Shown here one piece after another: positions 13,431 to 62,532 of a stretch of DNA of 64,000 nt (positions within the stretch are counted from its first letter, which is position 1; each line of letters begins with the position of its first letter). The notes below the pieces were generated by a model. That model saw only the letters and a list, made by a program, of their open reading frames with translations, had not been told where the DNA came from and did not search any database. Origin of the DNA: Eledone cirrhosa. Its lineage: Eukaryota. The DNA is taken from assembly GCA_964016885.1 (NCBI GenBank), contig OZ024754.1, forward strand, positions 26,412,001 through 26,476,000. Direction: 5' to 3'. A program made the translations under genes and the position numbers.

Positions 13431-15604
13431 TACCGTGACGATGGTCTTTTGACCATGACTAAGTGAAGACCTCGTGCTTGCGACAGGTTCAGAAAAGAAC
13501 TCACAGCCTTCTTTAAAGGCTTCAACCTCTCTATACAGGTTGAAGCCAATCTCTCGGTCGTTAATTACCTCGACGTTACCCTTAATTTATTGTATGGGTT
13601 GTATTACCCGTATAGAAAGCCGAATGATACGCTTAATTACATAAGTAAGCATTCCAACCATCCTGCCAGCATAACCAAGAACCTGGTAAGAAACGTTTCG
13701 TTGAGGCTTTCCCGTCTTTCCACCAACGAACGTATTTTCAACGACCATTCCACTTATTACAATGAAGCTCTTGCTCGAAGTGGATTTGTCGATAAGGTAG
13801 CATATACAGAGCACGAACATAGACATAGAAGAAATAGATCCCGTCGCATTTGTTGGTATAACCCACCATATAATATGGAGGTGGCCACACCATTAGCTAA
13901 GATCTTTCTTTCCCTTATTACGAAGCATTTCCCCCCTACACATAAATATAGTAACATTTTTAATAGAAATACTATTAAAATTTCTTACTCTACGACTCCT
14001 AACCTTGCACATAACATCACAGCTTCAAATTTAGCTAAACTACCTAGCCGTAGGAACACGTGCAACCCTGTAGTTAGTACTAACTGTAATTGTAAGAATC
14101 GGGCTGATTTGCCCCTATCCGGGAAATGCCTCTGTAGTAACATTGTCTACAAATGTAAGGTTGTAACACCCACGTCCCATAGGGCCTACATAGGGTTAAC
14201 CGCCAATAGTTTCAAGCAGCGTCTTTACATGCATACCCATTCTTTTCGTTACCCTCTAAGAAGGAATATGACGTCACTTTCAGCTCATATCTGGAGTCTA
14301 AAAGACAACCACACCCAATGTAAGTTACACTGGGAGATCCTAGCTAGGGCTAGATCGTATAACGGAAATAAAAGACCATGTGACCTCTGCGTCGCTGAGG
14401 CCCTGGAAATACTCTACGCCACAGACCACATCTTAAACAAAAAATCTGAGGCAATTTCGGCTTGTAAACATAAATTGCACAAAACTTTCCTGTATTACAG
14501 CCCCACGTTATACCCTAACGGATAGTACGATCTATACGTGGATATTTTACGTCTTGGTGTGGGAGCTAAGTATATGTTTTGTTTATTCCTTTACTTATTT
14601 GCATAGGTAAGTATATATTACCCGTATGTTTTGTGAAGGTACGTATACCTTCTCGTACGTATATATTGATTGTTATGGCGTATAATTTTATATTTCTGGT
14701 ACATAGGGTTTGACTATGTGTATACGGGAGTTTTGCGTCTGTGTGAGTATGCAGGTTCGTACGTATGGTGGGTGTGTGTATATGTCTACTTCTTGTTTTA
14801 GTTGACTTACGTCTCCGAACATTCGTGTATTTATATGTAGGTATGTGTGTGCGCTTGTTATATACGTATTTATTTATTCTTATACGTTTATATAATTATT
14901 TATTTATTTGTATACACGCATACACACACACACATATTTATATGCGCGTGGTTTTGTATACCTATGGTAAGGTTTTGCGTATGCTTGTGTATGTACGTGT
15001 TTGTTTGCGTGTATGTATTTATTTATTTCTCATTACTTCTGTATTGTATTTATTTACTTTGTTCTTAACTCTGTAGCGGTGATTCATTTGGTCTCCTAGT
15101 TAGAATTTTAGTCTACGACTTCTGCTATACGATTTACGTGGTTTTGTCTTGGCGTGCTATTGTTCCCCACGCTCCACATATGACGTATTATCTTCGTTTT
15201 TTCGTTCATTGCCAGAGAACGTCTCTATGCACCACCTAAGAGAACATTAGTCTACGACCTCTTTTATACCATGAACGTGGTTCTGTCTTTGCACGTAATT
15301 GTTTTTCACCGCTCCTATTAATGACGTATTATTCGTTTTTTCCCGTTCTTTGCCAGCGAACGTTACCACGAACCAAAGTATCGTCTTCCTGTCTTCTTCC
15401 GGTTGCAACGTTTTTTGAAATATCCAGTTCTGCGTTTACAGATTGACTTTGTTAGTATCAGAAGATCCCGTTAAGGGTGAAAGCAGCGATTCTTTGCTTA
15501 ATCTGTTATTTTAATAACTATTTGCTCTATGGTTCTTATATATTTGATATATATTTATCCTTATCGAGCCCTCTTTGGATTTTAGTCTTCAAATTTATTA
15601 TTAT

Positions 15605-17429: not shown

Positions 17430-18870
17430 AAAAATGGAGAGAAACAGGGGGATATTCCAGCACTGACCCTATTTGCCATATACTTTGCAATGGTTTTCTA
17501 TATTGCTTTCAGGAATTGCAAGTATGGTATTTGCATCTACTATCGAACCACTAATTTAACATCAGGCGCTTTGCTGTAAAAACAAAAGTCATAAGAGACC
17601 TCTTGTATGCAGATGATTGCGATCTTGTAGCGCACACAGAGATTGATATGCAGCACATTTTGAATGCATTTTCTGATCTTTGCACTGCCCTAGGATTGAC
17701 TGTCAGTCTCAAGAAAACCGTCGTCAGGTACCAACCTGCCCCTGGTAAGCAGTACAATGAACCAAATATCTATGTGTATGGTAAACGACTTGAAGTGGTT
17801 GATCAGTTTGTCTACCTGGGAAGCACTGTCAATCGATACAGCAATCTTGATAATGAAATTCCACTTAGGATTAGGAAAGCAAGTGGTGCTTTCGGAAAGC
17901 TAGAAAGGCGTCTCTGGGGTCGACGAGACATATGCAAGAAGTCAAAGGTAAAGGTGTACAAGGCGTGTGTACTCTCTTCTCTTCTTTATGCCTGCGAGAC
18001 GTGGGTCACATATCAACACCACCTTAAACAGTTAGAACGCTTCCATGAGATGTCTCAGACGGATCCATAGCGTTCAGTGGAGGGACCACATCAGTGATGT
18101 TGATATTTTGGAAGGCTTTCTGTGTGAAAGTATAGAAGCTCATGTGCCTAAGCAAAGACTCCAATGGAGTGGTCACCTTGCCAGGATGAAGGATTCTAGA
18201 ATACCAAAACAACTCTTTTATGGAGAGTTAGTTAAAGGAAAATGACTTTCACATAAACCAAAAATGAGGTATAAGGATTCGTTGAAAACCTCCTTGAAAG
18301 ACGCTAAAATCTCTGCTGATACATCGGAAAGCGTAGCTGCTGATCGTAATAAATGGAGTAAGACTGTACATGAGGGGAAAGTTGCTTTTGAGGCATCTCG
18401 AATCACATACTAGAAAGTAAAAAGGGATGTGAGGAAGGGCATTGCTGTTACATTTCCAGACAGCGAAGGTCGTTCTATGGCGCTGATATGCAGCGTCTGT
18501 GCAAGACTCTGCCTCAGCAAAGCTGGACTCAAAAGTCATCTTCGCAGTCATAAAGTGAGGCCAGTGGTTGACTACCAGGCTGCTGTCGGAGATGCTGCTC
18601 ATCATACCTGCCGAGCATGTGGAAGAGAGTGTAGATCAGCAGGGGGCTCAAACGACATGCAAACGTACATGAAGACCAACCGAAACCGGCTATTCCCAGT
18701 GAATGTTTTTATTATGGTTACCAACTCTGTGCAATATATTTTAGATCATTGGCTGGGCTACAAAGCCACATTCGATCGCAGCACCGTTAATTATTAATAT
18801 ATATATATATATTTTTTTATCGTGCAATGGCCATATTCGATAACGAGGAGGTAGCCATCATGTATGTATA
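17430..18870 (+). mobile_element. 5'-truncated, decayed RTE-clade LINE
   Basis: GEKQGDIPALTLF, YADD, FVYLGS, LLYACETW, RLQWSGHLARM..RIPKQLFYGEL, then C2H2 fingers; 3' stem-loop GGCCATATTCGATAACGAG..GCCATC and an ATGT-type tail. Confidence 0.9.
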
Positions 18871-18914
18871 TATGTTTACATGTATGTATGTATGTATGTA
18901 TGTATGTATGTATG

Positions 18915-21900
18915 TTCTTTTGGTTTTATAATTTCACAAAGTTTTACCAATAGAGAGAGAGTCGGTTTCTAACATAGACACAAGACTCTCTCATTGGAAT
19001 TTACACAACATCAACTAGGTAGATATGTATGTATGCATGCATGTGTAGATATGGATGTTATTGTATGTGTGGATGTGGATGTTTTGAGTTGTATGTGTGC
19101 ATGTGTATATGCTTTGTATCTGTACATGTGTATATGCAGTTATTAGATGCAAAATGTTTGGAATGTTTTACATATTTTTTACTGTTCCATTAATGGATTG
19201 TACTTGTCGTTTCCTAACTAGTTGTGTTCTTTCTGTTCCTGTGAAGCCTAGCTTCTCAAGATTTGTATTGAGGCAGTTACTTACATATCCCAGTGCCCCA
19301 ATAATCACAGGCATAAATCTGAAGGTGTAATCAGGGTGGAGTATCTGCAGATTTCTCATCAGTTCTGCATAAATATTCTCCTTTTCACTAATCTTTGCTA
19401 TTATATTGGCATCTGCTGGGCAGCTAATTTCCACTACTGTGCATGTTTTCTTCTCCCTGTCCCATATCACAATATCTGGTCTGTTATGCCTGCATATTAT
19501 TGGGGTTTTTACTGGAACATTCCACCAGTACTCTTTCATATTATGTACATGGATGTCTTCCACATTGTTGTAGCTTTTAATGTGTTTATTATCGGGGCTT
19601 TCTTTTTTACGAACTGCATTGTACAGTGTTTTGGCCACTACATCATGCCTCATAGGTAGATAGTACCGTGATGACATCTTTGGGCAGCTGCTGATGACAT
19701 GGGTGATATCCTCGATGTTAGTTCTGCAGAGTCTGCACTTGTTATCACATCTAGGTGTTTTGCCTGCATCCCTATCTCTTTTGTGAATCAGGTATTTCGT
19801 GCTAATCTCCTGTTCTTGGATTGCAAAAGCGTATCCTTCAAAGTGGGAGCCAATATAGCGGTTCTTCGTCCAAGATAGACTACTTTCCTTATCTATACTA
19901 CTCTCACTCTGGAGCTTCCTGGCAACATATCCATGCATGAGTTTTTGCTGATAGGCATGTAGTTTTTCATCCATGGATTCACTGCGATACTGCTGAGCGA
20001 CGTCCCTGGGTGTGAGTTTTTGATTATCACACAGGGAATATCTCTCAAGGAGTTCCTTCCCAACTCTCATAATCTTATCTGTTTCATGCAGATAGACTTG
20101 CTCGAGAAGCGGGCTCCAACGAGATTCGTAGATGTTGTCGGAGGGATATGATGCGACATTCAAATGTTGTCTGGACTGATGTTAGGCCTCTTCCTCCCTG
20201 CTTACGTTTCAAGTAAAGGCGGTCTATGTCACTGTTGATGTGGAAGTTTCCGGTATTGTTCAGTATTTTTCGAGTTCCAACATCAACTGCTCGGATTTCG
20301 TCTATTGTCCAATTGAGTATTCCAAACGTTGGTGTTAGGACAGGCACAGCAAACACATTGTGAGCCACTGTTTTGTTTTGCGCAGAGAGTTCCGATGACC
20401 AGATCTTTCTTAATCGGGTTACGCGTTCTTTATTACAGATACCATTATAGGATATGTTCTCATCTATCCCCAGGTATCTGCAGGAGTCGTCATCAGATAT
20501 CGGTGAAACAGTTATACCATTGATGACAATGTTGCTAGATTGGGTTGTTGTTTTTCCCCGCTTTACAGTCATGTATGAGCATTTATCTTGGCCAAACTCC
20601 ATTCCTATATCCTTTGAGAACGTTGTAACCAGGTGAAGATTTTTCTTCATCCCAACCATGTTCTTGGCATAGAGTTTCAGATCGTCCACAAAGAAGTTAT
20701 GGGTTAGGTTCGTATTTCTGTCCTCCTGTGAGCTAATGATGTATCCCTCACATTTCTTGAGCAGAAAGGACAAGGGGTTTAATGACAAGATGAACAATAT
20801 CACAGAGAGACTGTCCCCCTGAAATATACCCCTGCAATATTTTATTTTATCAGTGAAAATAGAGTCCTCCCTCTCTGTCTTTAACCTTAGGATAATAGTC
20901 CAAGAAGAAGACAGTCTCTATGGCTCTGACAATAATGTCTGGGACTTTAGCAAGTTGGAGGGCCTCTATCATCCAAGAGTGGGGAACAGAATCGAAAGCT
21001 TTCTTGTAGTCCAGCCATATTCTTCCTAAGTTGTCGCACCTCTGACATCGCAGTTTTGTTGATTAGGAGTTGTTCAGCACATCCCCAAACCCTTTTCTTT
21101 CCAGCTGCTTGTTCATCTGTGATGATGTTATTATTTTCACAGTGATCTTGGAGGAATAGGTTGAGGCAGGCTGTATACATCTTATATATCAGGTTCTGGC
21201 ATGCAATGGGTCGGTAGTTTTTTGCCAAGTGGGTGTCTTTGTTCTTGGGGACCAGTAACGTTTGTGCTAATGTCAACCATTCTGGTATAAGTGTATCTCC
21301 ATTAAGAACTTGTTGGTAGAGGTCAGTAAGATACCTCCGATAGAATATTAGTTTTTTGTACCAGTAGCCGACAATCATGTCTCTTCCTGGTGTTTTCTTA
21401 TCTTGGAGTTTTCCTATCACAGTCTCAAGGGTACCCTCACTTATTTCGTATGTTTTTGTTGTAGTGTAGGAGCAATAGTTCTTTCGGATTTCTCTTAGCC
21501 ACACTGCATCTTGGTTGAAATTCTTCTTTTCACCCCATATTTTTCTCCAAAAGGAATCTGTCTTTCTGGGATGGGGCCTCAGTGACACTTATTATTTTGC
21601 CCTTCATATCTCTATAGACTGATGTTTGGTTTCGTCTGAATCTTTTATTAAGCATTTTTCTTTCATCTACCTTCTTCAGGTATCGGCGTTTTTCGCTAAC
21701 AGCTCTCAATTCTTGTTTGAGGGTGATCAGCTTATATTGAAGAGTTCTGGTTCTACTGTTACCAAACATCATCTCTATTTTATTTTTCACTCTTTGTTGG
21801 TGAGGAGTGAGGTTTTTTGTGTTTGTTTGCATGTAAGGAGCATCGTCACATGTCCTATGTTCTTTCGTAGGTCAGCACTCTTTTTTTCTATTTTAGTTAT

Positions 21901-22031
21901 ATATGATGGTATTTTTGGTGGTGTTTTGTTCTAGTTAATATCTCTGCTATAACCAAGATAATGCTTCACTGTCATTGCTAAGGCATATAAACAGGCGTTG
22001 ATTTGCCAAAATGTTGGGGTTTTTATCTGTC
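18915..22031 (-). mobile_element. R4/Dong-clade RLE non-LTR retrotransposon, divergent, 5'-truncated, frameshifted
   Basis: NYRPIAC, FFVDDLKLY, CRLC..ITHVISSC, RHD, RPDIVIWD..VEISCP; bounded by (TATG)n on both sides. Confidence 0.9.
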
Positions 22032-22056
22032 GTATGTATGTATGTATGTATGTATG

Positions 22057-22090
<34 letters not shown>

Positions 22091-22107
22091 TGTATGTATG
22101 TATGTAT

Positions 22108-25100
22108 CTCTTTCTCTTAATTTCGAGTATATTTTTTTGACCGGCCACCTTCCTGGTGGCAAGGTTGTAAAAGAAAATAAATTGTCATCCCTTGAATCGC
22201 AAGAATGTTTTGCAAATTTTGAAGGTGCCAGCTATCTCAGCCATTTGTAGACTATGAATTAGGGAGCTGCGCTTTTTGTCCGCAAATCCAAGTTCAGTCA
22301 TACTTTGGTCCAAGCGGGTTGGTATATAACCCGTAGCTCCAATAATGATGGGTATGAAGGTAAAGGTGTATCTTGGATACTGGATTTGTAAACTCCTCAT
22401 CAATGGTTCGTAGATGTCCTCCTTCTCCTGTATTTTTCTGACAACGTTTACATCAAGTGGGCAGCTGATCTCCACAACATAACACGTTTTCAATGTGTGG
22501 TCCCAAACAACAATATCAGGCCGGTTGTGCTTTAATTTGGTGGCAGTTTTTATTTTCAGGTTTCACCAGTATTCCTTAGTGCCATCTATCTCAATATATT
22601 CCTCCTCGTTTGTTGTTAATTTTGTTTTCCGAAGTGCGTTCCAGATGGTTCTAGCTATCCCATCGTGTCTCATGGGGAGGTAGTAGCGAGATGACAATCT
22701 TTCGCAGCTGGCAACAAGTGGCTTACATCCTCGATCTTTGTTTTACATAGCCTACATTTATTGTCAGCTGCTGACCCTCCTCTTTTGTGCAGCAGATATT
22801 TGGTAGGGAGTTCTTGTTCCTGTATTGCATAGAGATATCCCTCAAGGTGTGATGTCATAAACTTGTCGGAACTCCATGCCAGGCTTTTTGAGTGGTTTAT
22901 CCCCTCTATGGTCTGTGTTTTACGCCTCAAGTATCCATGCACAACTTTTTCTGTAAATTGGTCAATTTTTTTTCATCTTGTTTGAACATTGAATAGGATC
23001 TTCCGATTTCTCTGGGTGAGAGATTTATATCAGGCTTTATTCCATATCTCTCCTCCAGATCAGTCGCTATTCTCATGATATATTTTTTTTTCATGCTCAT
23101 AAACCTGGGCAAGATGGTTGCCAACCTTTTTCCTCTGTTGAAGGTGTTGCTTCAGTGTTACCATCTGGGTCTCATATGTTGTTAATATTGATTTTAGACC
23201 CGGCCACCTTCCTTGCGTGAAAAGTATAGCCTATCCACATCACCATTGATGTTAAAGTTCCCAGTAATACTGAGTAGTTTTCGAGTTCTAACATCCATCT
23301 CACTTAGTTCTTGCAATGACCAGTTCAGCAGGCCAAATGTTGGCGTTAGAATTGGCACAGCATAAGTATTGTGGGCAATGTATTTGTTGTATGCTGACAG
23401 TTCTGATGACCATATTTTCTTTACTCTTCTGAGGTATTCAGTTCTGGTTCTCTCCTTATTTATGGGTCCATCATATCTGACATTCTCATCCTGTCCAAGA
23501 TATCTGTAGTTGTCACCTGACTGCAGAGGTTGTATTGTCAGGCCGTTCATCTCTAGATTTCTAGAGGAGGGCACAGCTCTTCCATGTTTTACTGCCAAAT
23601 ATGCACACTTGGACTCACCAAATTTCATTTTGATGTCGGTTGAAAATTGTATAATGAGGTCCAATTGTTTCTTGATGTCATTGATATTTAGCCCATACAA
23701 CTTCAGGTCATCAACAAAGAAAAGATGGGAGATACTTCTGGGCCCACTTCTTTGTCCACCTTGTTTCCTGAATAGGTAAGATAGTGGATTCAGTGAGAGA
23801 ACGAAGAGTAGCACTGACAAGCTATCACCCTGAAAGATGCCCTTCTGGTAATGTATCTTATCAGTCTTAACTTGCTCCTTCTCACCTCTAAGGATCAAAT
23901 TGGTGTACCAGTTCTTGGTCAGGTGTTCAACAACAGCTACCAATGGTTGTGGGACTTTAGCTAACTGTAAAGCCTTAATAATCCACCCACGAGGTACACT
24001 ATCAAATGCTTTTTGATAGTCCAGCCACACCACAGTCATGTTTCTGCGATTCTTTGTTGTTTTTTCCTGAATCATTTTGTTAGTTAGTAGGTGATCTATG
24101 CAACCCCACACCTCCCTCTTTCCACCAGCTTGCTCAGGTGTTATGATGTTGTTGGTAGCACAGTGATCCTGTAAGAACAGGTTAAGGCACCCAGTATATA
24201 ATTTATACATGATGTTTTGGCAGGCTATTGGGCGGTAATTTTTAGCAAGGGTGGTTTGGCTATTTTTGGGAATGAGGAGAGTAGTGGCAGTTGATAACCA
24301 TCTGGGAAGTTCTTGTGTGCCTTTAATGGTTTCTGTAAACAGCCGTATGAGATCTTGCCGATAGAAAGTGAAATTCTTCAACCAGTATCCTGTAATGAGG
24401 TCTGGGCCTGGCGATTTCCTATTCGACATTTTCTGTAGAGCTGTTTCCAGTATTGACCCATCTATGTCATATTGTTTTGTCTGGACATGTTGGCAGTAGT
24501 CCTGTTCCAGTTCTTTTAGCCAATTAGCTTGTCTGTTGAATCCGTCATCCGTTTCCCATACAGATCTCCAGTAACTCTCAACCTGTTCTTTTGAAGGGGT
24601 GTCGTTTACAGGGATTGAGCTTTTGCCACCGAAGCTGCGATAAACTGATTTAGGATCTATGGCAAACAATCTATTTAGCACTTGTCGTTTATGTGCTGTT
24701 AACTTATATTTTAGTCTTTCTGTTGTAGCTGTGAGTTGTTTCAACTGGTGTAATTTGGAGTTCAAAGTTTTAAATTTTGTATCTCCAAATCGTCTCTCTA
24801 ACTTTTTCTTTAGGTCTTCCTGGTGTCGTGTGAAGTTGCTCTCTATGTTGCATTTCATAACGACTGCGATGTGTGAGATACTTCGTCTCAGGGACAAAAT
24901 TTTGTTTTTTAAATTTCGCATCCACGCTGGTTCAGGCTTTCTGTTTGTATCTTGATTGCGTGGTTTTAGATGTGTGTTATATGATAGCAATGTGACAGCT
25001 GAAACATATAACAAAACATTAAGCGTTTCAAATGTCGTTTCTACACCTTTAGATCGTATAGCCTTCAGATAATTTCCAGCTATTTCGTTCACCGCTTCCA

Positions 25101-26340
25101 ATTCCAATTTATTGGGTTCTTTACTGATTCTGGTGTTGTATGGTTTGTCACTCACATTAAGGCTGTGTATCTCTTGAAACATATCGTTCCATATCACTTG
25201 TAGGGTGTCCACAAGTTTTTGGTGCTCTGTTTGTTCAGTAGAGTCATGAATTTCAGCCTCGATGTTGATGTGGTGACAATTACTACTAGAGTTAGCTGAC
25301 CTTTCTCGCTGTTCTTCAGTGGAAGTGGGATGGATTTCAGCAAAATTGTTGGTGAGCTGTTCACTGTTAGATTTAGCTGGCCATTCTCTTTGTCTGTCAG
25401 TGGAGGTGGGGTGGTTGTCTACAAGGGCTGTATTTGTAGTATCACTCAATTCCGTTAGATGTATCAATTTACATCTAATGATACGTTTTGCCTGTTCATT
25501 TAAATGCTTTGGAGAAAAGTCTAATTCTGGGTGTTTGGAGTTCCATAAAGTTTTTAGCCTTTGCATAAAACCGAACTTTTGGGGTTCAGATTGTTTGTAT
25601 GCTTCATATAATACTTTGTTAAGCTCGTAGCTCCACTGTATACAACGGTTGTAGTTGCGATTTGGTCGAAGGAGACTTGTACTTTTTGCCATGATGAGTT
25701 CGTCTATTCACTAATATTTCGTATTTATTTTTCAAAATAGTCGATGATCTTCTTTAAAAGTTTCGACAAAGTTCTGTCAGAATCAAATTTAAAGTTATTC
25801 ACAGCTTTTTAAATTTAAAGTTATTCACTTCTTTTCAGTTAGTTTTTAATTCTACAACTGTGTTTTAAACGTTGTTCTTGAATCGTTTGAATCGAGAACA
25901 AAAAGAACCGTTACTTAGTATATTCCTTTATGAATGTAATATAATATAACAACGCTGTATTTATATGTTAAAGTTTATGTATCATTCATATAAATAGGTG
26001 TTCTACAACTTATTCACAACATATTCACAGTTCAAACACTTATGTTTTTGTTTCTGAATCGAAAACGTTACTTGTATATTTCTTTATAAATGTAATATAA
26101 CAACGTTGCATTTATATGTTAAAGTATATGTATCGTTCATATATCATAAGTGTATGTATCGTTCATATAAATAGGTATTTTACAACACACTTACAGTTCA
26201 GACACTTATGTAGAATTATTGTATGTAATCTTACCGCGTAATGTAGATCAACTTTTTCCAATATATGGTATGTTGCCTTCATGTAAGCCGTAATTACACA
26301 CGTCCGATTATCGGACACTGACCACAACGGTCGCCATTGT
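22108..26340 (-). mobile_element. R4/Dong-clade RLE retrotransposon, apparently full length, frameshifted ORF (25692 to 22185)
   Basis: Near-identical to 26848-31057; ORF split into 832/65/90/102-aa pieces; (TATG)n at 22032-22107 and 26341-26424. Confidence 0.92.
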
Positions 26341-26654
26341 TATGTATGTATGTATGTATGTATGTATGTATGTATGTATGTATGTATGTATGTATGTATG
26401 TATGTATGTATGTATGTATGTATGAATTCTAGGAGAAGGAAAACTCTGATATAACACCTGCAACCCTGATGGTATCCAATGATGTTGACTTGTTCTTCTT
26501 TTTGGTAAATATCATCTTGGTTAAGAGAGTGGGACTGGCTTTGTGCAGTGCCTTTCCTCACTATAAAAGCTTCACGGCACAGGCATTGCTTTATATCTGG
26601 AGATCTCTCTGCACTTGTCGTCACATGGTACCATGGGCCCAGCACTATGTGTCA

Positions 26655-26799
26655 GTAATTGTCACAAGTGTAGTGTTTGTACCAGAGTTTTCAAGTCGCT
26701 GGCTGGACTAAAAAGTCACACTCGTTCAGCGCTTCGGTAGGGGTTCTCCTACATGGATATAAAGTAGTGGCCGTACTCGAAAACGAGTTGGCAGCCACC
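26655..26799 (+). mobile_element. 3' terminus of an RTE-clade LINE followed by its (ATGT)n tail
   Basis: Encodes CSVCTRVFKSLAGLKSHTRS*; ends GGCCGTACTCGAAAACGAGTTGGCAGCCACC, homologous to the RTE ends at 18830-18860 and 40378-40410. Confidence 0.75.
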
Positions 26800-26847
26800 A
26801 TGTATGTATGTATGTATGTATGTATGTATGTATGTATGTATGTATGT

Positions 26848-29800
26848 TTTCTCTTTCTCTTAATTTCGAGTATATTTTTTTGACCGGCCACCTTCCTGGT
26901 GGCAAGGTTGTAAAAGAAAAGAAATTGTCATCCCTTGAATCGCAAGAATGTTTTGCATATTTTGAAGGTGCCAGCTATCGCAGCCATTTGTAGACTATGA
27001 ATTAGGGAGCTGCGCTTTTTGTCCGCAAATCCAAGTTCGGTCATACTTTGGTCCAAGCGGGTTGGTATATAACCCGTAGCACCAATAATGATGGGTATGA
27101 AGCTAAAGGTGTATCTTGGATACTGGATTTGTAAGCTCCTCATCAATGGTCCGTAGATGTCCTCCTTCTCCTGTATTTTTCTGACAACGTTTACATCAAG
27201 TGGGCAGCTGATCTCCACAACAGAACACGTTTTCAATGTGTGGTCCCAAACTACAATATCAGGCCGGTTGTGCTTTAATTTGGTGGCAGTTTTTATTTTC
27301 AGGTTCCACCAGTATTCCTTAGTGCCATCTGTCTCATTATATTCTTCCTCGTTTGTTGTTAATTTTGTTTTCCGAAGTGCGTTCCAGATAGTTCTAGCTA
27401 TCCCATCGTGTCTCATGGGGAGGTAGTAGCGAGATGACATTCTTTCGCAGCTGGCAACAATGTGGCTTACATCCTCGATCTTTGTTTTACATAGCCTACA
27501 TTTATTGTCAGCTGCTGGCCCTCCTCTTTTGTGCAGCAGATATTTGGTAGGGAGTTCTTGTTCCTGTATTGCATAGAGATATCCCTCAAGGTGTGATGTC
27601 ATAAACTTGTCGGAACTCCATGCCAGGCTTTTTGAGTGGTTTATCCCCTCTATGGTCTGTGTTTTACGCCTCAAGTATCCATGCACAACTTTCTCTGTAA
27701 ATTGGTCAATTTTTTTTTCTTGTTTGAACATTGAATAGGATCTTCCGATTTCTCTGGGTGAGAGATTTATATCAGGCTTTATTCCATATCTCTCCTCCAG
27801 ATCAGTCGCTATTCTAATGATATTTCTTTTTTCATGCTCATAAACCTGAGCAAGATGGTCGCCAACCTTTTTCCTCTGTTGAAGGTGTTGCTTCAGTGTT
27901 ACTATCCGGGTCTCATATGTTGTTAATATTGATTTTAGACCCCGGCCACCTTCCTTGCGTGAGAAGTATAGCCTATCCACATCACCATTGATGTTAAAGT
28001 TCCCAGCAACACTGAGAAGTTTACGAGTTCTAACATCCATCTCACTTAGTTCTTGCAATGACCAGTTCAGTAGGCCAAATGTTGGCGTTATAATTGGCAC
28101 AGCATAGGTATTGTGGGCAATGTATTTGTTGTATGCTGACAGTTCTGATGACCATATTTTTTTTACTCTTCTGAGGTATTCAGTTCTGGTTCTCTCCTTA
28201 TTTATGGGTCCATCATATCTGACATTCTCATCCTGTCCAAGATATCTGTAGTTGTCACCTGACTGCAGAGGTTGTATTGTCAGGCCGTTCATATCTAGAT
28301 TTCTAGAGGAGGGCACAGCTCTTCCACGTTTTACTGCCAAATATGCACACTTGGACTCACCAAATTTCATTTTGATGTCGGTTGAAAATTGTGTAATGAG
28401 GTCCAATTGTTTCTTGATGTCATTGATATTTGGCCCATACAACTTCAGGTCATCAACAAAGAAAAGATGGGAGATACTTCTGGGCCCACTTCTTTGTCCA
28501 CCTTGTTTCCTGAGTAGGTAAGATAGTGGATTCAGTGAGAGAACGAAGAGTAGTACTGACAAGCTATCACCCTGAAAGATGCCCTTCTGGTAATGTATCC
28601 TATCAGTCTTAACCTGCTCCTTCTCACCTCTAAGGATCAAATTGGTGTACCAGTTCTTGGTCAGGCGTTCAACAGCAGCTACTAATGGTTGTGGGACTTT
28701 AGCTAACTGTAAAGCCTTAATAATCCACCCATGAGGTACACTATCAAATGCTTTTTGATAGTCCAGCCACACGACAGTCATGTTTCTGCGATTCTTTGTT
28801 GTTTTTTCCTGAATCATTTTGTTAGTTAGTAGGTGATCTATGCAACCCCACACCTCCCTCTTTCCACCAGCTTGCTCAGGTGTTATGATGTTGTTGGTAG
28901 CACAGTGATCCTGTAAGAACAGGTTAAGGCACCCAGTATATAATTTATACATGATGTTTTGGCAGGCAATTGGGCGGTAATTTTTAGCAAGGGTGGTTTG
29001 GCTATTTTTGGGAATGAGGAGAGTAGTGGCAGTTGATAACCATCTGGGCAGTTCTTGTGTGCCCTTAATGGTTTCTGTAAACAGCCGTATGAGATCTTGC
29101 CGATAGAAAGTGAAATTCTTCAACCAGTATCCTGTAATGAGGTCTGGGCCTGGCGATTTCCTATTCGACATTTTCTGTAGAGCTGTTTCCAGTATTGACC
29201 CATCTATGTCATATTGTTTTGTCTGGACATGTTGGCAGTAGTCCTGTTCCAGTTGTTTTAGCCAATTAGCTTGTCTGTTGAATCCGTCATCCGTTTCCCA
29301 TACAGATCTCCAGTAGTTCTCAACCTGTTCTTTTGAAGGGGTGTCGTTTACAGGGATTGAGCTTTTGCCACCGAAGCTGCGATAAACTGATTTAGGATCT
29401 CTGGCAAACAATCTATTTAGCACTTGTCGTTTATGGGCTGTTGACTTATATTTTAGTCTTTCTGTTGTAGCTGTGAGTTGTTGTTTCAACTGGTGTAATT
29501 TGGAGTTCAAAGTTTTAAATTTGGTATCTCCAAATCGTCTCTCTAACTTTTTCTTTAGGTCTTCCTGGTGTCGTGTGAAGTTTCTCTCTATGTTGCATTT
29601 CATAACGACTGCGATGTGTGAGATACTTCGTCTCAGGGACAAAATTTTGGTTTTTAAATTTCGCATCCACGCTGGTTCAGGCTTTCTGTTTGTATCTTGA
29701 TTGCGTGGTTTTAGATGTGTGTTATATGATAGCAATGTGACAGCTGAAACATATAACAAAACATTGAGCGTTTCAAATGTCGTTTCTACACCTTTAGATC

Positions 29801-31057
29801 GTATAGCCTTCAGATAATTGCCAGCTATTTCGTTCACCGCTTCCAATTCCAATTTAGTGGGTTCTTTACTGACTCTAGTGTTGTATGGTCTGTCACTCAC
29901 ATTAAGGCTGTGTATCTCTTGAAACATATCGTTCCATATCACTTGTAGGGTGCCCACAAGTTTTTGGTGCTCTGTTTGTTCAGTAGAGTCATGAATTGCA
30001 GCCTCGTTGTTGATGTGGTGACAATTACTACTAGAGTCAGCTGACCTTTCTCGCTGTTCTTCAGTGGAAGTGGGATGGATTTCAGCAAAATTGTTGGTGA
30101 GCTGTTCACTGTTAGATTTAGCCGGCCATTCTCTTTGTCTGTCAATGGAGGTGGGGTGGTTGTCTACAAGGGCTGTATTTGTAGTATCACTCGATTCCGT
30201 TAGATGTATCAATTTACATCTAATGATACGTTTTGCCTGTTCATTTAGATGCTTTGGAGAAAAGTCTAATTCTGGGTGTTTGGAGTTCCATAAAGTTTTT
30301 AGCCTTTGCATAAAACCGAACTTTTGGGGTTCAGATTGTTTGTATGCTTCATATAATTCTTTGTTAAGCTCGTAGCTCCACTGTATACAACGGTTGTAAT
30401 TGCGATTTGGTCGAAGGAGACTTGTACTTTTTGCCATGATGAGTTCGTCTATTCACTAATATTTTGTATTTATTTTTTTTAAATAGTCGATGATCTTCTT
30501 TAAAAGTTACGACAAAGTTCTGTCAGAATCAAATTTAAAGTTATTCACAGCTTGGGTAATATTTCTTTTCAGTTAGTTTTTAATTCTACAACTGTGTTTT
30601 AAACGTTGTTCTTGAATCGTTTGAATCGAGAACAAAAAGAACCGTTACTTAGTATATTCCTTTACGAATGTAATATAATATAACAATGCTGTATTTATAT
30701 GTTAAAGTTTATGTATCATTCATATAAATAGGTGTTCTACAACATATTCACAACATTCACAGTTCAAACACTTATATTTTTGTTTCTGAATCGAAAACGT
30801 TACTTTTATATTTCTTTATAAATGTAATATAACAACGTTGCATTTATATGTTAAAGTGTATGTATCGTTCATATATCATAATTGTATGTATCGTTCATAT
30901 AAATAGGTGTTTTACAACACACTTACAGTTCAAACACTTATGTAGAATTATTGTATGTAATCTTACCGCGTAATGTAGCTCAACTTTTTCCAATATATGG
31001 TATGTTGCCTTCATGTAAGCCGTAATTACACACGTCCAATTATCGGACACTGACCAC
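26848..31057 (-). mobile_element. R4/Dong-clade RLE retrotransposon, near full length, intact ORF
   Basis: Single ORF, 620-nt 5' UTR, 80-nt 3' UTR with GCCACC-AGGAA-GGTGGC hairpin; 3' end abuts (ACAT)12. Confidence 0.93.
26928..30437 (-). CDS. RT / restriction-like endonuclease polyprotein (1169 aa)
   Basis: N-terminal Myb-like segment; RT motifs KSPGPD, NYRPIAC, LDYQKAFDSV, GIFQGDSLS, FVDD, YRYLG; CCHC (CRLC..H..C), RHD, PD..E..K. Confidence 0.95.
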   Translation of the reverse strand: MAKSTSLLRPNRNYNRCIQWSYELNKELYEAYKQSEPQKFGFMQRLKTLWNSKHPELDFSPKHLNEQAKRIIRCKLIHLTESSDTTNTALVDNHPTSIDRQREWPAKSNSEQLTNNFAEIHPTSTEEQRERSADSSSNCHHINNEAAIHDSTEQTEHQKLVGTLQVIWNDMFQEIHSLNVSDRPYNTRVSKEPTKLELEAVNEIAGNYLKAIRSKGVETTFETLNVLLYVSAVTLLSYNTHLKPRNQDTNRKPEPAWMRNLKTKILSLRRSISHIAVVMKCNIERNFTRHQEDLKKKLERRFGDTKFKTLNSKLHQLKQQLTATTERLKYKSTAHKRQVLNRLFARDPKSVYRSFGGKSSIPVNDTPSKEQVENYWRSVWETDDGFNRQANWLKQLEQDYCQHVQTKQYDIDGSILETALQKMSNRKSPGPDLITGYWLKNFTFYRQDLIRLFTETIKGTQELPRWLSTATTLLIPKNSQTTLAKNYRPIACQNIMYKLYTGCLNLFLQDHCATNNIITPEQAGGKREVWGCIDHLLTNKMIQEKTTKNRRNMTVVWLDYQKAFDSVPHGWIIKALQLAKVPQPLVAAVERLTKNWYTNLILRGEKEQVKTDRIHYQKGIFQGDSLSVLLFVLSLNPLSYLLRKQGGQRSGPRSISHLFFVDDLKLYGPNINDIKKQLDLITQFSTDIKMKFGESKCAYLAVKRGRAVPSSRNLDMNGLTIQPLQSGDNYRYLGQDENVRYDGPINKERTRTEYLRRVKKIWSSELSAYNKYIAHNTYAVPIITPTFGLLNWSLQELSEMDVRTRKLLSVAGNFNINGDVDRLYFSRKEGGRGLKSILTTYETRIVTLKQHLQQRKKVGDHLAQVYEHEKRNIIRIATDLEERYGIKPDINLSPREIGRSYSMFKQEKKIDQFTEKVVHGYLRRKTQTIEGINHSKSLAWSSDKFMTSHLEGYLYAIQEQELPTKYLLHKRGGPAADNKCRLCKTKIEDVSHIVASCERMSSRYYLPMRHDGIARTIWNALRKTKLTTNEEEYNETDGTKEYWWNLKIKTATKLKHNRPDIVVWDHTLKTCSVVEISCPLDVNVVRKIQEKEDIYGPLMRSLQIQYPRYTFSFIPIIIGATGYIPTRLDQSMTELGFADKKRSSLIHSLQMAAIAGTFKICKTFLRFKG

Positions 31058-31289
31058 CAGCGCTTCGGTAGGGGTTCTCCTACATGGATATAAAGTAGTG
31101 GCCGTACTCGAAAACGAGTTGGCAGCCACCATGTATGTATGTATGTATGTATGTATGTATGTATGTATGTATGTATGTATGTATGTATGTATGTATGTCT
31201 CTCTTGTTCTCTCTCTTTCTTCCCAAGCGTGAAACTAATAAGACTTTGCGCTTTTGCATCTCTGTGTTTGTCTTGTTTAATCTTGAACA

Positions 31290-37866: not shown

Positions 37867-40155
37867 TATTAAAATAACAGATTAAAGTTTAAGCAAAGAA
37901 TCGCTGCTTTCACCCTTAACGGGATCTTCTGAAACTAACAATGTCAATCTGTAAACGCGGGCGGTGGTTTGTACCGTGACGATGGTCTTTTGACCATGAC
38001 TAAGTGCGGACCTCGTGCTTGCGACAGGTTCAGAAAAGAACTCACAGCCTTCTTTAAAGGCTTCAACCTCTCTATAGAGGTTGAGGCCAATCTCTCGATC
38101 GTTAATTACCTCGACGTTACCCTCAATTTATTGAATGGGTTGTATTACCCGTATAGAAAGCCGAATGATACGCTTAATTACATAAGTAAGCATTCCAACC
38201 ATCCTGCCAGCATAACCAAGAACCTGGTAAGAAACGTTTCGTTGAGGCTTTCCCGTCTTTCCACTAACGAACGTATTTTCAACGACCATTCCACTTATTA
38301 CAATGAAGCTCTTGCTCGAAGTGGATTTGTCGATAAGGTAGCATATACAGAGTACGAAAATAGACCTAGAAGTAATAGACCCCGTCGCATTTGTTGGTAT
38401 AACCCCCCATATAATATGGAGGTGGCCACACCATTAGCTAAGATCTTTCTTTCCCTTATTACGAAGCATTTCCCCCTACACATAAATATAGTAAAATCTT
38501 TAATAGAAATACTATTAAAATTTCTTACTCTACGACTCCTAACCTTGCACATAACATCACAGCTTCAAATTTAGCTAAACTACCTAGCCGTAGGAACACA
38601 TGCAACCCTGTAGCTAGTACTAACTGTAATTGCAGGAATCGGGCTGATTGCCCCCTATCCAGGAAATGCCTCTCTAATAACATTGTCTACAAATGTAAGG
38701 TTGTAACACCCACGTCCCGTAGGGCCTACATAGGGTTAACCGCCAATAGTTTCAAGCAGCGTCTTTACATGCATACCCATTCTTTTCGTTACCCTCTAAG
38801 AAGGAATATGACGTCACTTTCAGCTTATATCTGGAGTCTAAAAGACAACCACACCCAATATAAGTTACACTGGGAGATCCTAACTAGGGCTAGATCGTAT
38901 AACGGAAATAAAAGACCATGTGACCTCTGCGCCGCTGAGGCCCTGGAAATACTCTACGCCACAGACCACATCTTGAACAAAAAATCTGAGGCAATTTCGG
39001 CTTGTAAACATAAATTGCACAAAACTTTCCTGTATTACAGCCCCACGTTATACCCTAACGGATAGTACGATCTATACGTGGATATTTTACGTCTTGATGT
39101 GGGAGCTAAGTATATGTTTTGTTTATACCTTTACTTATTTGCATAGGTAAGTATATATTACCCGTATGTCTTGTGAAGGTACGTATACCTTCTCGTACGT
39201 ATATTTGATTGTTATGGCGTATAATTTTATATATTCTGGTACATATGGTTTGGCTATGTGTATACGGGAGTTTTGCGTCTGTGTGAGTATGCAGGTTCGT
39301 ACGTATGGTGGGTGTGTGTATATGTGTACTTCATGTTTTGGTTGACTTACGTCTCCGAACATTTGTGTGTTTATAAGAAAGGTATGTGTGTGCGCTTGTT
39401 ATATACGTATTTATTTATTTATATACGTTTATATAATTATTTATTTATTTGTATACACGCATACTCACACACGCACATATTTATATGTGCGGTGTTTTGT
39501 ATACCTATGGTAAGTTTTTGCGTATGCTCGTGTATGTACGTATTTGTTTGCGTGTATGTATTTATTTATTTCTATTACTTCTGTATTGTATTTATTTACT
39601 TTGTTCTTAACTCTGTAGCGGTGATTCATTTGGTCTCCTTGTTATAAATTTAGTCTACGACTTCTGCTATACCATTTATGTGGTTTTGTCTTTGCGTGCT
39701 ATTGTTCTCCACGCTCCACATATGACGTATTATCTTCGTTTTTTCGTTCATTGCCAGAGTACGTCTCTTTGCACCACCTAAGAGAACATTAGTCTACGAC
39801 CTCTTTTATACCATAAACGTGGTTCTGTCTTTGCGCGTAATTGTTTTTCACCGCTCCTATTAATGACGTATTATATTCGTTTTTTCCCGTTCTTTGCCAG
39901 CGAACGTTTCCACGAACCAAAGTATCGCCTTCCTGTCTTCCTCCGGTTGCAACGTTTTTTGAAATATCCAGCTCTGCGTTTACAGATTGACTTTGTTAGT
40001 TTCAGAAGATCCCGTTAAGGGTGAAAGCAGCGATTCTTTGCTTAAACTTTAATCTGTTATTTTAATAAATATTTGCTCTACGGTTCTTATATATTTGATA
40101 TATATTTATCCTTATCGAGCCCTCTTTGGATTTTAGTCTTCAAATTTATTCTTAT

Positions 40156-40158
<3 letters not shown>
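37867..40158 (+). mobile_element. 5'-truncated PLE, copy 2, with inverted terminal arm (37867-37958 = revcomp of 39976-40067) and 91-nt tail
   Basis: ORF pieces 37969-38574 and 38769-39065 (frameshift near 38475); TA flanks. Confidence 0.9.
39998..40048 (+). ncRNA. Hammerhead-like motif with U4A core (also 15454-15503 and inverted near 37886-37936)
   Basis: AGTTT-CAGAAGA-TCCCGTTAAGGGT-GAAA-GCA..TGC-TT-AAACT. Confidence 0.6.
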
Positions 40159-40193
<35 letters not shown>

Positions 40194-40374
40194 AAAAAGA
40201 AATTAAAAGATGGTTAAAAAAGTTTCATATATTTTATTATGCGCATTTCGAATACAAAATCATCCTGGGACAAAAATTGTGTTCTTATCAGATAAAATAA
40301 GGTAACATGATATGAAGCATAATAGCACTTGTTTACAGGAAAGTGCTAAGTCTCTCTCTCTCTCTATATATATA

Positions 40375-41120
40375 TGATGATGGCTGCCCCCTCGTTATCG
40401 AGTATGGCCATTGCACGAGAAAAAAAATATATACATACATATATATATATATATATACACACACATACACATACATATATATTAATAACAATAATAATAA
40501 CGACAACAACAACAATAATAATATATATATATATACACACACACGCACACACATAAACATATCTTTACACACACACACGATAGCAACTAACAGCGCTGCG
40601 ATCGAATGTGGCTTTTTAGCCCAGCCAATGATCTAAAATGTCTTGCACAGAGTCGGCAACCAAAACATTCACTGGGAATAGCCGGCTGTGGTTGAAGTTC
40701 ATGTACTTTTGCATGTCGCTTGAGCCCTCCTGCTGATTTACATTCTCTACCACATGTTTGGCAAGCATGATGAGTAGCATCTCCAACAGCAGCCTAGTAG
40801 TCAACCACTGGTCTTACTTTATGACTGCGAAGATGACTTTCGAGTCCAGCTTCGCACAGACGCTGCATGTCAGCACCATAGGAGGACCCTCGCCGTCTGG
40901 AAGTGCAACAGCAATGCCCTTCCTCACATCCCTTTTTGCTTTCTCGTATGCGATTCGAGTTGCCTCAAAGGCAACTTTTCCCTCATATACAGTCTTTCTC
41001 CATTTATTACGATCAGCAGCAATATTTTCCCATGTATCAGCAGAGATGTTAGCGTCTTTCAAAGAGGCTTTCAAAGAGGCTTTCAAGGAATCCTTATACC
41101 TCTTTTTTGGTTTATGTGGC
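40375..41120 (-). mobile_element. RTE-clade LINE 3' fragment, same family as 18248-18865
   Basis: KPKKRYKDSLKASLK..WENIAADRNKWRKTVYEG; C2H2 remnants; same 3' stem-loop; microsatellite expansion inside the 3' UTR. Confidence 0.85.
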
Positions 41121-43246: not shown

Positions 43247-45700
43247 TTACTGGTTGGTTGTTTGTTTTATGGGTGTGTGTGTTTTCATTTTGTCCTTAAT
43301 TGTAAGTTGTGATGTTGCTGTTTTCTGTTGTGAATGTTTTCTATTTAATTTTGGTTGTAATTCTTTTATGTTTATTGCCTCTGTAATTTGTCTAAACATT
43401 GCGTCTTTTCTGTGTGTAGATTCTATTTTTATTTCTATGTTCTCTAATTTACCCTTGTGTTCTATTTTAGCATGTTGGTAGAGTACAGATGATTCTTTAC
43501 TATCTTGAAGGTCTCGCTAGTATTCATTTATCCGTTCCCCTACACTACGAGCTGTCTCACCTATGTACACTATATTTTTGTCTCTACATTGTCCTTCAGT
43601 ACATCTTATGCTATACACTACATTTCTAGTTTTACAGTTAATATGGGGGCTTATTTTACAGGTTATACATTTCTTATCTATACATGAGGGTCTTTGAAAA
43701 GGGTATGTCTTGCTAATAAGTGTTTTTACGGAGGTACCTGGTCTTTCTACTATCTTAATATTGAGTTTATGTTTATTTAGGGCCCTTCTAAATTTGTAAG
43801 CTAATTCACCTCTAGGGGTTGTATCGATGAACATTACACTCTGGTATTTATTGCTATCATACCATGAGTTTATTCTATTAGCCTTGTTCCTAGTTCTTTC
43901 TATTCTATTCCAAAATTTGTTCCTATACAAGGGGCAGGTCCCATTTATGTCATTATTTACCATTTTTTCCCATTTGGTTCTGGCTCCTCTATACACTCTG
44001 ATTTTATCTCTCTGATTGTAGCCAGAGAACTGCATACGGTGGATGAAGTGTTGTATGTGTCTCTCTAGTTCTTCGGGGTTGCACATGCGGGACACGTTTC
44101 TCATCACCCGTACCAAATCCGCAATCAGTATGTTGATTTTGGTATGGTCTGAAACGGCCGAGTTTCGGTGGATCAGATGTTTGGAAGTCATGGGTTTGGC
44201 ATAATGGGAATGGAGGATTTGTTTTTTGTTATTAATGGTATCTCACCAGAGCTCTGTGTCTAGTACAGGTAATCGATGGTTGGGGTGTTTACTTGGGTAG
44301 TCTATAGTAACTGTAATGCTCTGGTGGATGGAGTTAGCTATTTGCTGGATGCTTTCCATTGTGTTTTTCTCTAGTTCCTGACTGTTCTCTAGTGGGGGTG
44401 TCTTAACTACGATGTTTATATCATCAACGTAGCGGGAGTACATTATCAGGGTTAAGGGGTCTTCTAATTGTTCTTTAAGCTTAAGTTTAAGTCTACTGTC
44501 CCACCATACCATGAATAAGTTAGCTATGTCGCCTGCAATGCTAACACCAATGGCTGCTCCTTCCTCTTGGGCATATGTTTTTCCATTAAATTTGAACATA
44601 TGTTCCTTAAGGATTAGTTTTATGCTGGCCCCTACCGCATGTGCAATCATTTTCTTCAGTTTATCGTGGTTTTCGGGTGTCCGTATGGCTCTGGTCCACC
44701 CGTTCCATCTATCTGTGTGGGTTTTCTTGGCCATTGAGGTAATGGTAGGTGGTCTGCCTCTTGCTGGTCTTGTAGGGCATAGGTTGCTAAGGTCATATGT
44801 GTCTAGGTAATTATTACTATAGGTAAGTTTAAGTAGGAGTCCCAGCTCACTGGTATCAATCCCACGGAACTCAACATTGCTCTCACTGATCATTTCTACG
44901 CATTTCTCCACAGCAAAATCCACGTCAATAGATGGATACAGGGACACAACATCCATACTACCTATTATGCAGTTTGGTAGGTCCCTAGATCGGTTACTCA
45001 CGCCGATTCTGCTGAGGAGGAGGTCCTCCGTGCTGTCACATACATCTGAGGACATTTCGATGATGGGGCGTATGATCAGGGAGAGGAAGTAGGACAGTCT
45101 GTAGTTACTAGCAATGTTAGCTCCACAGACTGGCCGTGTTGGTGGTCCCGCGACAGGGTCACTGCCCGTTTTATGGTCTTTTCGAGGCCCATACAACGCC
45201 GGCACGTCATTGTTCCAGGCCTGGAAGTTGTTGGCAGTCCTTTTGTTGGGCTGCATTATATTCGTCCACATCACCATATGGGCATTGAGGGCTTTTTCCC
45301 TATCCTCATGCTCCTGTGGTGTTACCTCTCTTGTGTTAGTGATGTGGGGTTGCATTGCCTGGATGTATTTTGGCAGGCTGTCAACCGACATTCTGCCAGA
45401 CTTGTCTGTTGGAAAGCATGCTATCTCTCCATTGCGCGAGCGCTGCATGAGCTTACGCAAGCCATTTGCAGATTTTGCTCCCAGTTGCTGGGCCTCCATT
45501 CTAATATGCTTCTTGCTATACTGTTCTATAATATTTCTAAGTTCGGATCTAGCTATACTAAATTGTGCTTCTGTTTGTTCATTGACCTGCGACGGCAATT
45601 GCGTGCGTTTGTTAAATGGTAAAGTCGTGGCGGGGACTCGTCGCAGGTCGAACGATTTGTCGGAGGGATTATAAAAACTAGAGTTCCAGGCTGCTGCTTT
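43247..45700 (-). pseudogene. PLE RT-GIY-YIG ORF interrupted by two in-frame stops (TGA 44243, TAG 43517)
   Basis: ORFs 44243-45775 and 43517-44191 share a frame, which continues SVLYQHAKIEH..RQITEAINI..LNRK to TAA at 43247; the first ~24 aa of the 510-aa ORF come from the inverted arm. Confidence 0.85.
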
Positions 45701-45790
45701 ATGCAGACTGAGCACACAACACACACACAGAAACAAAATGGCGTAGGACAGAACAAAGGAGAGGCACAGAAACAAAGAAAGGAATCCCCA

Positions 45791-45833
45791 GTCACTGAAG
45801 AGGTCACAGAGTGTGTGACGAAAGAACTATGAC
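45791..45833 (+). ncRNA. Minimal hammerhead (also 43052-43094 - and 53865-53907 +)
   Basis: GTCA-CTGAAGA-GGTCACA-GAGTG-TGTGAC-GAAA-GAAC-TA-TGAC. Confidence 0.7.
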
Positions 45834-46627: not shown

Positions 46628-51887
<5,260 letters not shown>

Positions 51888-54160: not shown

Positions 54161-54245
54161 CTAGGTGGTGCTATTAAGTTAGACATGGCCTATCAAAGTT
54201 ATATATACATACATACATACATACATACATACATACATACATACA

Positions 54246-54379
<134 letters not shown>

Positions 54380-57039: not shown

Positions 57040-57238
57040 TTGATATAGACGTGAATTACTTCGCTCCGGATTTTTACGGATTATTGTAAAAAAAACCGAG
57101 TTCATTGCTCAATTTAATAGCATTGTTTAGTTTAACCCCTTGCCTGGGCCGTCAGACGTTGAGTCAACTAATTTTCGCCCCTTTCTGGGGCGAAATTTTC
57201 ATTTTCATCTCAAAACTGTGTAGACTTGGTAGTCAGCA

Positions 57239-58504: not shown

Positions 58505-59085
58505 AAAGGCACCACATTAACAAAAATGCCACAAACACACAACCACCAGCACAAACAGAACAAACATCACAAATAAAAAAAACCCACCCCTCCCCAAAAC
58601 ATAACACATACTACAAAACGCAAACACGCACAAGAACAACAAACAAAAACAAACACAACACAACAAAAACTCTATACATACATTAACAAGAACAATAAAA
58701 CGTTGATGAAAACAGTAGAAAATAACCCTTCGGTGGAAACCGAAGGGTTATTTTCACCTACGCAGCGAACAAACCGCACCTAATGATGATTAGGGTCCCA
58801 ACGGAAACCTATGTAACTTTGAAAAAGAACCATCCAATGCATGTGGGGACCAACTGCACCAAACCACTTAACCACATCCTATTGAGATGTTTCCCCACCC
58901 CCACACCAGACACCCCACCAAACACCCTAATCCCACCACACACTGATGTCCTCACCCCACCACAAACCACCACCCCACCAAACATCCCTTCCAACACCCC
59001 CATGGAAATTGTGCAGCCTGGTCCCCAGGAGACGAAAAGGTAAGTAATTTCCTTTCCTCTTCCTTTTTAACTCTTCAGCACCAAC

Positions 59086-62000: not shown

Positions 62001-62532
62001 ACCGATGGACAACTTCCAAAAGTCCCTGGCTTGGCAATGTTACCGAGGAGCTCTACCCGTTCGGGACAAGCTCTACAGACACGGGCGCCCGGGTAGGGAC
62101 CCCTCGAAGAAGATCTGTCCGAGATGCGTGCGTGACGAGGAAACCGTCGCACACGCATTCGTACAATGCCCGGGAGTTGCTGACCTGTGGGGCTATGTGG
62201 AACGACTACTGTCGCGGGTGGGACCAATCCGGTTGACCACCGAGAACATTGTCACGATCAAACCGCCTCCCCCTTTCAAAAACGAAGGAGAGGCGGTTTT
62301 CCTCTGTGTGATAGCCATGGCAAAAGAAGTTGTATGGTGGACAAGGTTGAAAGGGCTGAGGTCAGACACCTTTCTCTCCGGCCAACAACTGGTCTTTTTT
62401 TTCAAGTACCACTTTAGAAGAAGGATCAGAATGGAGAGAGAGGTGCTCTACCCCAGCAAGTTTTATGAAAGATGGGTGAAAGTAGCGAGAATGGCCCGAG
62501 TGAATGGGCCTTCTCTCTATATCAGCCTGTAG
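59086..62532 (+). pseudogene. ORF2: AP-like endonuclease + RT + C-terminal CCHC, with frameshifts and stops
   Basis: CVNARGL, VGDWN, SYLDRFLV, SDH; GLDGLPYE, NFRPITLLN, RQGCPLS, YADD; CPRC..ETVAHAFVQC. Confidence 0.92.

Follow-up and report, generated by a model that had tools for sequence, protein, structure and literature searches.

We analysed a 64,000-nucleotide stretch of the Eledone cirrhosa genome (contig OZ024754.1, positions 26,412,001 to 26,476,000), hereafter the window, in which positions 18860-31198 hold stacked retroelements with ATGT/ACAT tracts between them, at 18860-18915, 22032-22107, 26341-26424, 26800-26847 and 31131-31198. Three minus-strand long interspersed nuclear elements (LINEs) of the kind that encodes a restriction-like endonuclease (RLE) lie in this stack, and they represent two families: element A belongs to family A, and elements B and C belong to family B. 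A preliminary description of the window had reported three RLE elements of the same orientation from two families, each with its 3′ end in (ACAT)n, together with an intact open reading frame (ORF) of 1169 residues. All of this was borne out, and ACAT stands directly at the 3′ end of each of A, B and C. The subject of this report is whether that repeat is the insertion target of these elements. The features of the stack are as follows.

17514..18859, plus strand: RTE LINE, decayed and 5′-truncated, 87-89% identical to RTE loci from 17514; its 3′ end adjoins the first tract
18860..18915, no strand: (ATGT)n tract on the 3′ side of element A (repeat sequence)
18916..22031, minus strand: element A, a family A RLE LINE, 5′-truncated and frameshifted, with a structured 3′ untranslated region (UTR); RVT_1 match, E 8e-11
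22032..22107, no strand: (ATGT)19 tract, both the 5′ flank of A and the 3′ flank of B (repeat sequence)
22108..26337, minus strand: element B, a full-length family B copy with a frameshift after residue ~833 (ORF of 837 residues, then two further frames)
26341..26424, no strand: (TATG)21 tract at the 5′ ends of both B and short element X (repeat sequence)
26425..26799, plus strand: short element X, a 5′-truncated copy with a 3′ hairpin; full-length X is ~608 bp, non-coding and RTE-related
26727..26847, plus strand: left-hand copy of a 121-bp perfect direct repeat, made up of 73 bp of X and 12 ATGT units (100% identity)
26800..26847, no strand: tract of 12 ATGT units, 3′ flank of C, part of the 121-bp direct repeat
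26848..31057, minus strand: element C, a family B copy without the 13 5′-most bases, 98.6-100% identical to 40 genomic copies
26928..30437, minus strand: intact ORF of element C, 1169 residues, with reverse transcriptase (RT), CCHC knuckle, RHD and RLE motif, and an N-terminal three-helix domain
31058..31178, plus strand: right copy of the 121-bp direct repeat, 100% identical to 26727..26847
31131..31198, no strand: (ATGT)17 tract (repeat sequence)

Elements B and C are 97.2% identical, and the 5′ end of B is that of 8 full-length genomic copies. Element A represents a second family; its protein is 40-67% identical to that of C over five high-scoring segment pairs, and it is not the sister of C in a 63-row tree; 204 first-look candidates for family A were found in the genome. 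The architecture read in C (single ORF, RT, CCHC, RLE) supports the R4/Dong-type identity first proposed for them. The decayed copy at 17514..18859 has a weak RVT_1 match (E 4e-5 in 17555-18070), and we take it to be an RTE LINE on features generally associated with that group.

ACAT repeats at the element junctions

Across the 3.0-Gb host genome, 3′ junctions were counted by exact or pattern match. The terminal 23 nt of family B were matched 4,103 times, and CATACA lies within 5 nt of 2,955 of these 3′-end matches (at most 72%, some being counted twice). The opposite polarity, TATGTA, was found at only 3 family B 3′ ends, a polarity of ~1,000 to 1, and in a background of 54 evenly spaced 10-kb stretches of the genome CATACA lies within 5 nt of 0.8% of random positions. 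Among the first 100 listed family B ends, 71 had CATACA and 29 did not. Three of the latter were already among the young copies considered next; inspection of the other 26 by eye gave 18 clear and 6 marginal degenerate ACAT flanks.

Forty young family B copies, the top BLAST matches on one contig (contig C1; 98.6-100% identical), were then read at both junctions. The 3′ flank begins ACATA in 39 of them, and ACAT-type 4-mers make up at least 57% of the 40 nt before the 5′ junction in all 40, a density reached at 0.25% of random positions. Thirty-two of the copies are 5′-truncated, at differing points, and still have ACAT at the 5′ junction. Because the repeat also stands at the 5′ junction of truncated copies, it is the target and not the tail, and ACAT is not confined to 3′ ends as an element's own tail would be, so that the refutation for which the preliminary description had asked did not come about on this point. 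In family A, 29/30 3′ flanks begin ACATA (window copy included), and among 21 visible 5′ junctions read by eye the repeat is clear in 14 and partial in 2. None of the 3′ flanks of family B (0/40) or family A (0/30) begins with TAA repeats. The elements do not track repeat abundance, because (AT)n runs are far commoner than ACAT runs in the background (635 against 52, ~12 to 1). With a tract on both sides in 40/40 young copies and a polarity of 2,955 to 3, the specificity for the ACAT tetranucleotide claimed in the preliminary description holds across the genome. Raw reads from other samples agree: loose ends at the element 3′ end are ATGT repeats in three of four runs (X1, X4 and X7), and ATGT loose ends occur at the 5′ end or truncation point in two of four (X7 and X23).

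Two R4-clade RLE LINE families lie in (ACAT)n in one fixed orientation, likely because their protein nicks the ATGT strand of a tract that is already there, a reading drawn from sequence to which we give a probability of roughly 85%. Several points weigh against it. By eye, ACAT is missing from the 3′ junction in 2 of the 26 CATACA-negative copies and from 5 of the 21 visible family A 5′ junctions. The 40 young copies are top matches from one contig and no random draw, and the four runs gave no cover of the unique flank of L036, a copy with a short 3′ tract, so that empty alleles were not observable. Duplication length is unreadable inside pure repeat tracts; a pure 5′ run of at least 50 nt occurs in 23/40 copies against 31% expected if the whole run were duplicated (p=5e-4); and the background used below to gauge adjacency to RTE ends comprises only 27 tracts, with which a twofold preference for RTE-adjacent tracts is compatible.

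A mechanism can be outlined from R2, whose established biochemistry serves as the model for the order of nicks and for priming. By this analogy, the RLE protein would nick the ATGT strand of an existing tract and prime reverse transcription there, and the repeat would presumably be read by the RLE together with the Myb/SANT-like three-helix domain at the N terminus. A few 3′-terminal RNA bases (ACAU) may pair with the primer, and priming, as in R2, would involve the structured 3′ UTR, for which fold z-scores of -2.56 and -3.33 (the latter for element A) were obtained. A second nick would fall downstream at a variable distance, about 10 to 120 bp and usually within the tract; part of the tract would thereby be duplicated, and both new junctions would be fresh targets, giving rise to stacks. 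RTE LINEs and X would enter these tracts on the other strand and less selectively, accepting any AT-starting repeat, and tail-to-tail and head-to-head neighbours would then arise from a common niche and not from dependence. At the 5′ end, a search for ribozymes with Rfam returned only spurious miRNA matches to repeats, and for the first 101 nt of B the predicted fold is no stronger than in shuffled sequence (z -0.64).

Further observations concern family B itself. Its 3′ end has two heritable terminal variants (ATAA or AAAA before CATACA) that mark subfamilies, the youngest copies having AAAA. In three copies (L136, L155 and L156) the (ATGT)n beside the 5′ junction is inverted; two of these, L155 and L156, are oriented towards one another with a common 3′ flank, which suggests an inverted duplication. 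The element is present at a share of 0.39-0.67 in runs under four different organism labels, so family B is common to several species or is present there as foreign DNA. No RNA run was listed among them, which speaks neither for nor against expression.

Target duplication and the origin of the tracts

Positions 26727-26847 and 31058-31178 are exactly the same, and this 121-bp direct repeat, which flanks C directly, is likely the target site duplication of C, the original site having probably been an X end plus (ATGT)17. Shorter duplications were read at other copies: 28 bp, marked by a variant unit, at L041 and at most 9 bp at L057. Three more (L034, L039 and L064) suggest duplications of 70-110 bp but lie in higher-order repeats. 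No duplication into unique flank was found in the 40 other young copies, and a case such as the 121 bp was seen once, at C. Long duplication as a rule was considered and is unsupported by those 40 copies. Another copy lies directly downstream in 10/40 young copies according to a neighbour classifier that is noisy for 'Dong' calls because the family A 3′ UTR is itself ACAT-like. Taken together, the 121-bp and 28-bp duplications and the downstream neighbours support the earlier proposal that insertion duplicates the tract and seeds stacks.

The tracts on the two sides differ in length. The 5′ tract is the longer in 31/40 young copies (medians 85 against 37.5 nt, p=1.5e-4), and pure runs of at least 50 nt stand at the 5′ side in 23/40 and at the 3′ side in 2/40. 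Simple duplication incompletely accounts for these long 5′ runs, which reflect either a preference for long tracts or the writing of extra repeat by the RT. In the latter case, a short ACAT seed would be all that the element needs, and slippage or a jump to upstream target DNA would extend the 5′ junction by 40-80 nt of pure repeat; such writing would be an addition to target-strand nicking and not a replacement for it. Consistent with it are, besides the asymmetry, the full-length copy L065, in which a 57-bp tandem duplication of upstream sequence stands at the 5′ junction as expected from a template jump; L056, where a pure repeat of 103 nt lies amid (AT)n sequence; and GTAT loose ends with a median of 101-103 nt at 5′ junctions in raw reads from another sample. 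However, long tracts exist without these elements (37/316 runs are at least 50 nt), and the median run is 15.5 nt in 22 mixed-age 5′ junctions at unselected loci. A preference for long tracts combined with downstream duplication would also give the same asymmetry, and C fits it, with 20 nt upstream and 48 duplicated. We regard the writing of extra repeat as a tentative supplement, with the odds against it.

The tracts themselves might instead come from RTE elements. The preliminary description had placed two of the target tracts directly after RTE stem-loops in the opposite orientation and had proposed that RTE makes the targets. The orientation is as described; the feature at 26425-26799, however, is X and not an RTE LINE, and the hairpin of the decayed RTE copy has a fold z of only -0.51, against -3.56 for X. 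The last 36 nt of X have 21,478 exact matches in the genome. The 5′ part of X is common to short elements that end like RTE and its 3′ hairpin is similar to that of RTE, and X may be mobilised by RTE. A second short element (L321, L324, L326 and similar loci) joins the X 5′ part to an RTE 3′ end, so more than one non-autonomous RTE derivative exists.

On this reading RTE would write ATGT tracts as its own 3′ tails, and the RLE elements would depend on those tails. In keeping with this, two of the three 3′ tracts in the window follow RTE-type ends, and X ends are strictly polar and enriched in ATGT even though AT runs outnumber ACAT runs 12 to 1: 6,935 of the 21,478 (32%) continue with ATGTATGT and 8 with ATACATAC. 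RTE-generated microsatellites have also been reported (cited in PMC9115989; PMC6007223, in the parts of these papers covered). Nevertheless, the far side of the tract has an RTE-type 3′ end in 9/40, 10/29 and 5/26 copies, or 24/95 in all, against 4/27 background tracts (p=0.31), which leaves 71/95 insertions with no such end. The repeat that follows an RTE-type end is the local one, of any kind that starts with AT: among 30 X loci the 3′ flank is ATATATAT in 12, ATGTATGT in 6 and another AT-starting repeat in 11, and among 30 RTE loci it is ATGTATGT in 6. X carries the same local repeat at both junctions, with duplications of 8-24 bp in 6/13 full-length copies, and it meets RLE elements head to head in 13/40 copies. 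An unoccupied (ACAT)17 at 54207-54274, within an (AT)n run, has no RTE end beside it. The claim that RTE makes the targets was not supported, and we consider dependence of the RLE elements on RTE tails unlikely. Judging from the flanks of X and its head-to-head meetings with the RLE elements, RTE-type elements are likely looser, oppositely oriented users of the same tracts, although some making or lengthening of tracts by RTE may occur. RTE 3′ repeats have been proposed to steer site choice (PMC6007223, in the part covered), a proposal that co-use of the tracts fits.

Very improbable is an origin of the pattern without active targeting, in which (ACAT)n is the element's own tail or the elements accumulate passively in microsatellite-rich DNA; this genome is rich in microsatellites and such accumulation has been proposed for Drosophila Waldo-A/B (PMC3812793, in the part covered), but the idea is already largely refuted by the tract at the 5′ junction of truncated copies, the polarity, the rarity of the commoner (AT)n and (AC)n as junction repeats and the locus-specific variants in the 3′ flanks.

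Other retroelements occur elsewhere in the window. A second RTE copy, on the minus strand at 40365-41118, is followed at its 3′ end by CAT-CAT and then by (AT)n and (AG)n, not by ATGT. Penelope-like elements lie at 13467-14525 (with a copy at ~37972-40190), 43517-45826 and 48410-50071, the last with RT and GIY-YIG; the segment 13431-15639 recurs at 37972-40190 with 96% identity. A two-ORF L1/Tx1-like element at 57233-62532 (zinc-knuckle ORF1, RT and zf-RVT) sits within an array of TC-rich repeats of 60-130 bp.

Protein of element C and comparison with known systems

In the 1169-residue protein of C, a three-helix unit spans residues 22-74, the CCHC knuckle C980-C997, the RHD motif 1009-1011 and the RLE motif PD1060..E1075. 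This last motif reads PD..E-I-S (PD..EISCP), and the lysine expected there from PD-(D/E)xK is absent. Profile searches matched RVT_1 (E 3.6e-25) and zf-RVT and gave no Exo_endo_phos match in this single ORF, and a pattern check of the first 330 residues found no C2H2 or CCHC pattern. The predicted structure (pLDDT, the predicted local distance difference test, 86) has R2 as its best match, with residues 320-1169 aligning to R2Tg at Z 32.0 and a root-mean-square deviation of 4.5 over 789 aligned residues. The three-helix unit was modelled confidently; residues 1-90 of the homologue P0010 match Myb_Rap1 at 0.85, below the 0.9 line. A divergent N-terminal Myb/SANT-like domain and no N-terminal zinc finger are described for the R4 clade in the part of PMC7998251 covered.

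The best named protein relative, at 64%, is from Argonauta hians, and C scores 350-550 bits with insect Dong-like proteins against 103 bits with R2. An RT tree of 30 rows, from which L291 and L315 were left out for their shortness (outgroups unnamed long branches; no named R2, NeSL, CRE or HERO reference included), places the lineage of C (100/99) among TAA-flanked and 28S-inserted elements. It joins the 28S elements at 96/93 with long-branch warnings, and long branches may be the cause of that join. Among 80 metagenomic relatives of C, 32 reach the ORF end; (AAT)n follows in 19 of the 32, and (ACAT)3 within 260 nt of the ORF end was found in none (0/32). ACAT as an old trait of the lineage was also considered: only L211 falls in the lineage of C, with one ACATACAT near its contig end, which is too little to count.

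It is conceivable, although we would not bet on it, that a separate and widespread R4-clade lineage exchanged TAA for ACAT as its target and actively creates new insertion sites for itself, through a duplication of up to ~120 bp plus extra pure ACAT at the 5′ junction. Were this so, the lineage would be a source of long ACAT microsatellites here, which RTE elements use in the opposite polarity, and its young, intact RLE protein would lend itself to tests of how a Myb domain that lacks zinc fingers sets target choice.

An ACAT or CATA target for R4/Dong was not found in the literature searched, although Repbase, Dfam, Kojima and Fujiwara 2004 or the supplement of PMC13282606, which lay outside that search, may have it on record. 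Because this clade is already known to target microsatellites, and another clade ACAY, what is added is a new target within a known clade and not a new mechanism. R2 and other RLE LINEs are being turned into tools for inserting genes at chosen sites, and the way in which their target specificity shifts is of interest there. Family B is young, its protein is intact, its junctions number in the thousands and its target is unlike that of its TAA relatives, so that natural variation could be used to trace specificity to the Myb-like and RLE domains. The mixed retroelement stacks seen here are accounted for by a common, strand-polarised microsatellite niche.

The closest parallels are the Dong elements, which target TAA in insects, molluscs and cnidarians (PMC7998251, in the part covered). 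Dong of Bombyx mori, DongAg, DongBg and Darwinula Dong1/2 resemble the present elements: RT and RLE are encoded in one ORF, an N-terminal zinc finger is lacking and the target is a microsatellite (PMC7998251 and PMC3812793, in the parts covered). They differ in that the target there is TAA and here is ACAT; C is ~30% identical to TAA-flanked relatives and falls in a separate, well-supported lineage (100/99). Among cephalopods, five recently active Dong-R4 families with 1,129 insertions are reported in O. vulgaris (PMC13282606), active octopus families also appear in PMC8967140 and a full-length Dong is known from O. bimaculoides (PMC9115989), each as given in the part of the source covered. 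The covered parts of these three sources describe no target for the octopus elements. Some HERO and Togen families target microsatellites as well (PMC4640811, in the part covered), and R4 elements make target duplications (PMC3636483, in the part covered).

R4 is specific to 28S rDNA, whereas the present elements use a dispersed microsatellite with a variable duplication of up to 121 bp. One relative, L261, lies in 28S rRNA with a 14-bp duplication, at what we take to be the R4 site, and aligns to C over 1,147 residues. L261, L301 and L302 are RLE elements at one 28S rDNA site, two of them in contigs binned as cyanobacterial metagenome-assembled genomes; many matches of this sort in prokaryote genomes are likely eukaryotic contamination. 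R9 of Adineta vaga, an R2-related, rDNA-specific RLE element, reportedly makes a 126-bp target duplication, an exceptionally long one that compares with the 121 bp at C. The same repeat is targeted by Waldo of the R1 clade (WaldoAg1/2 and WaldoFs1), which inserts into ACAY microsatellites (PMC3812793, in the part covered). Waldo, however, has an apurinic/apyrimidinic-type (APE) endonuclease and a separate ORF1, in contrast to the RLE and single ORF found here, and the likeness between the two is convergence, not kinship.

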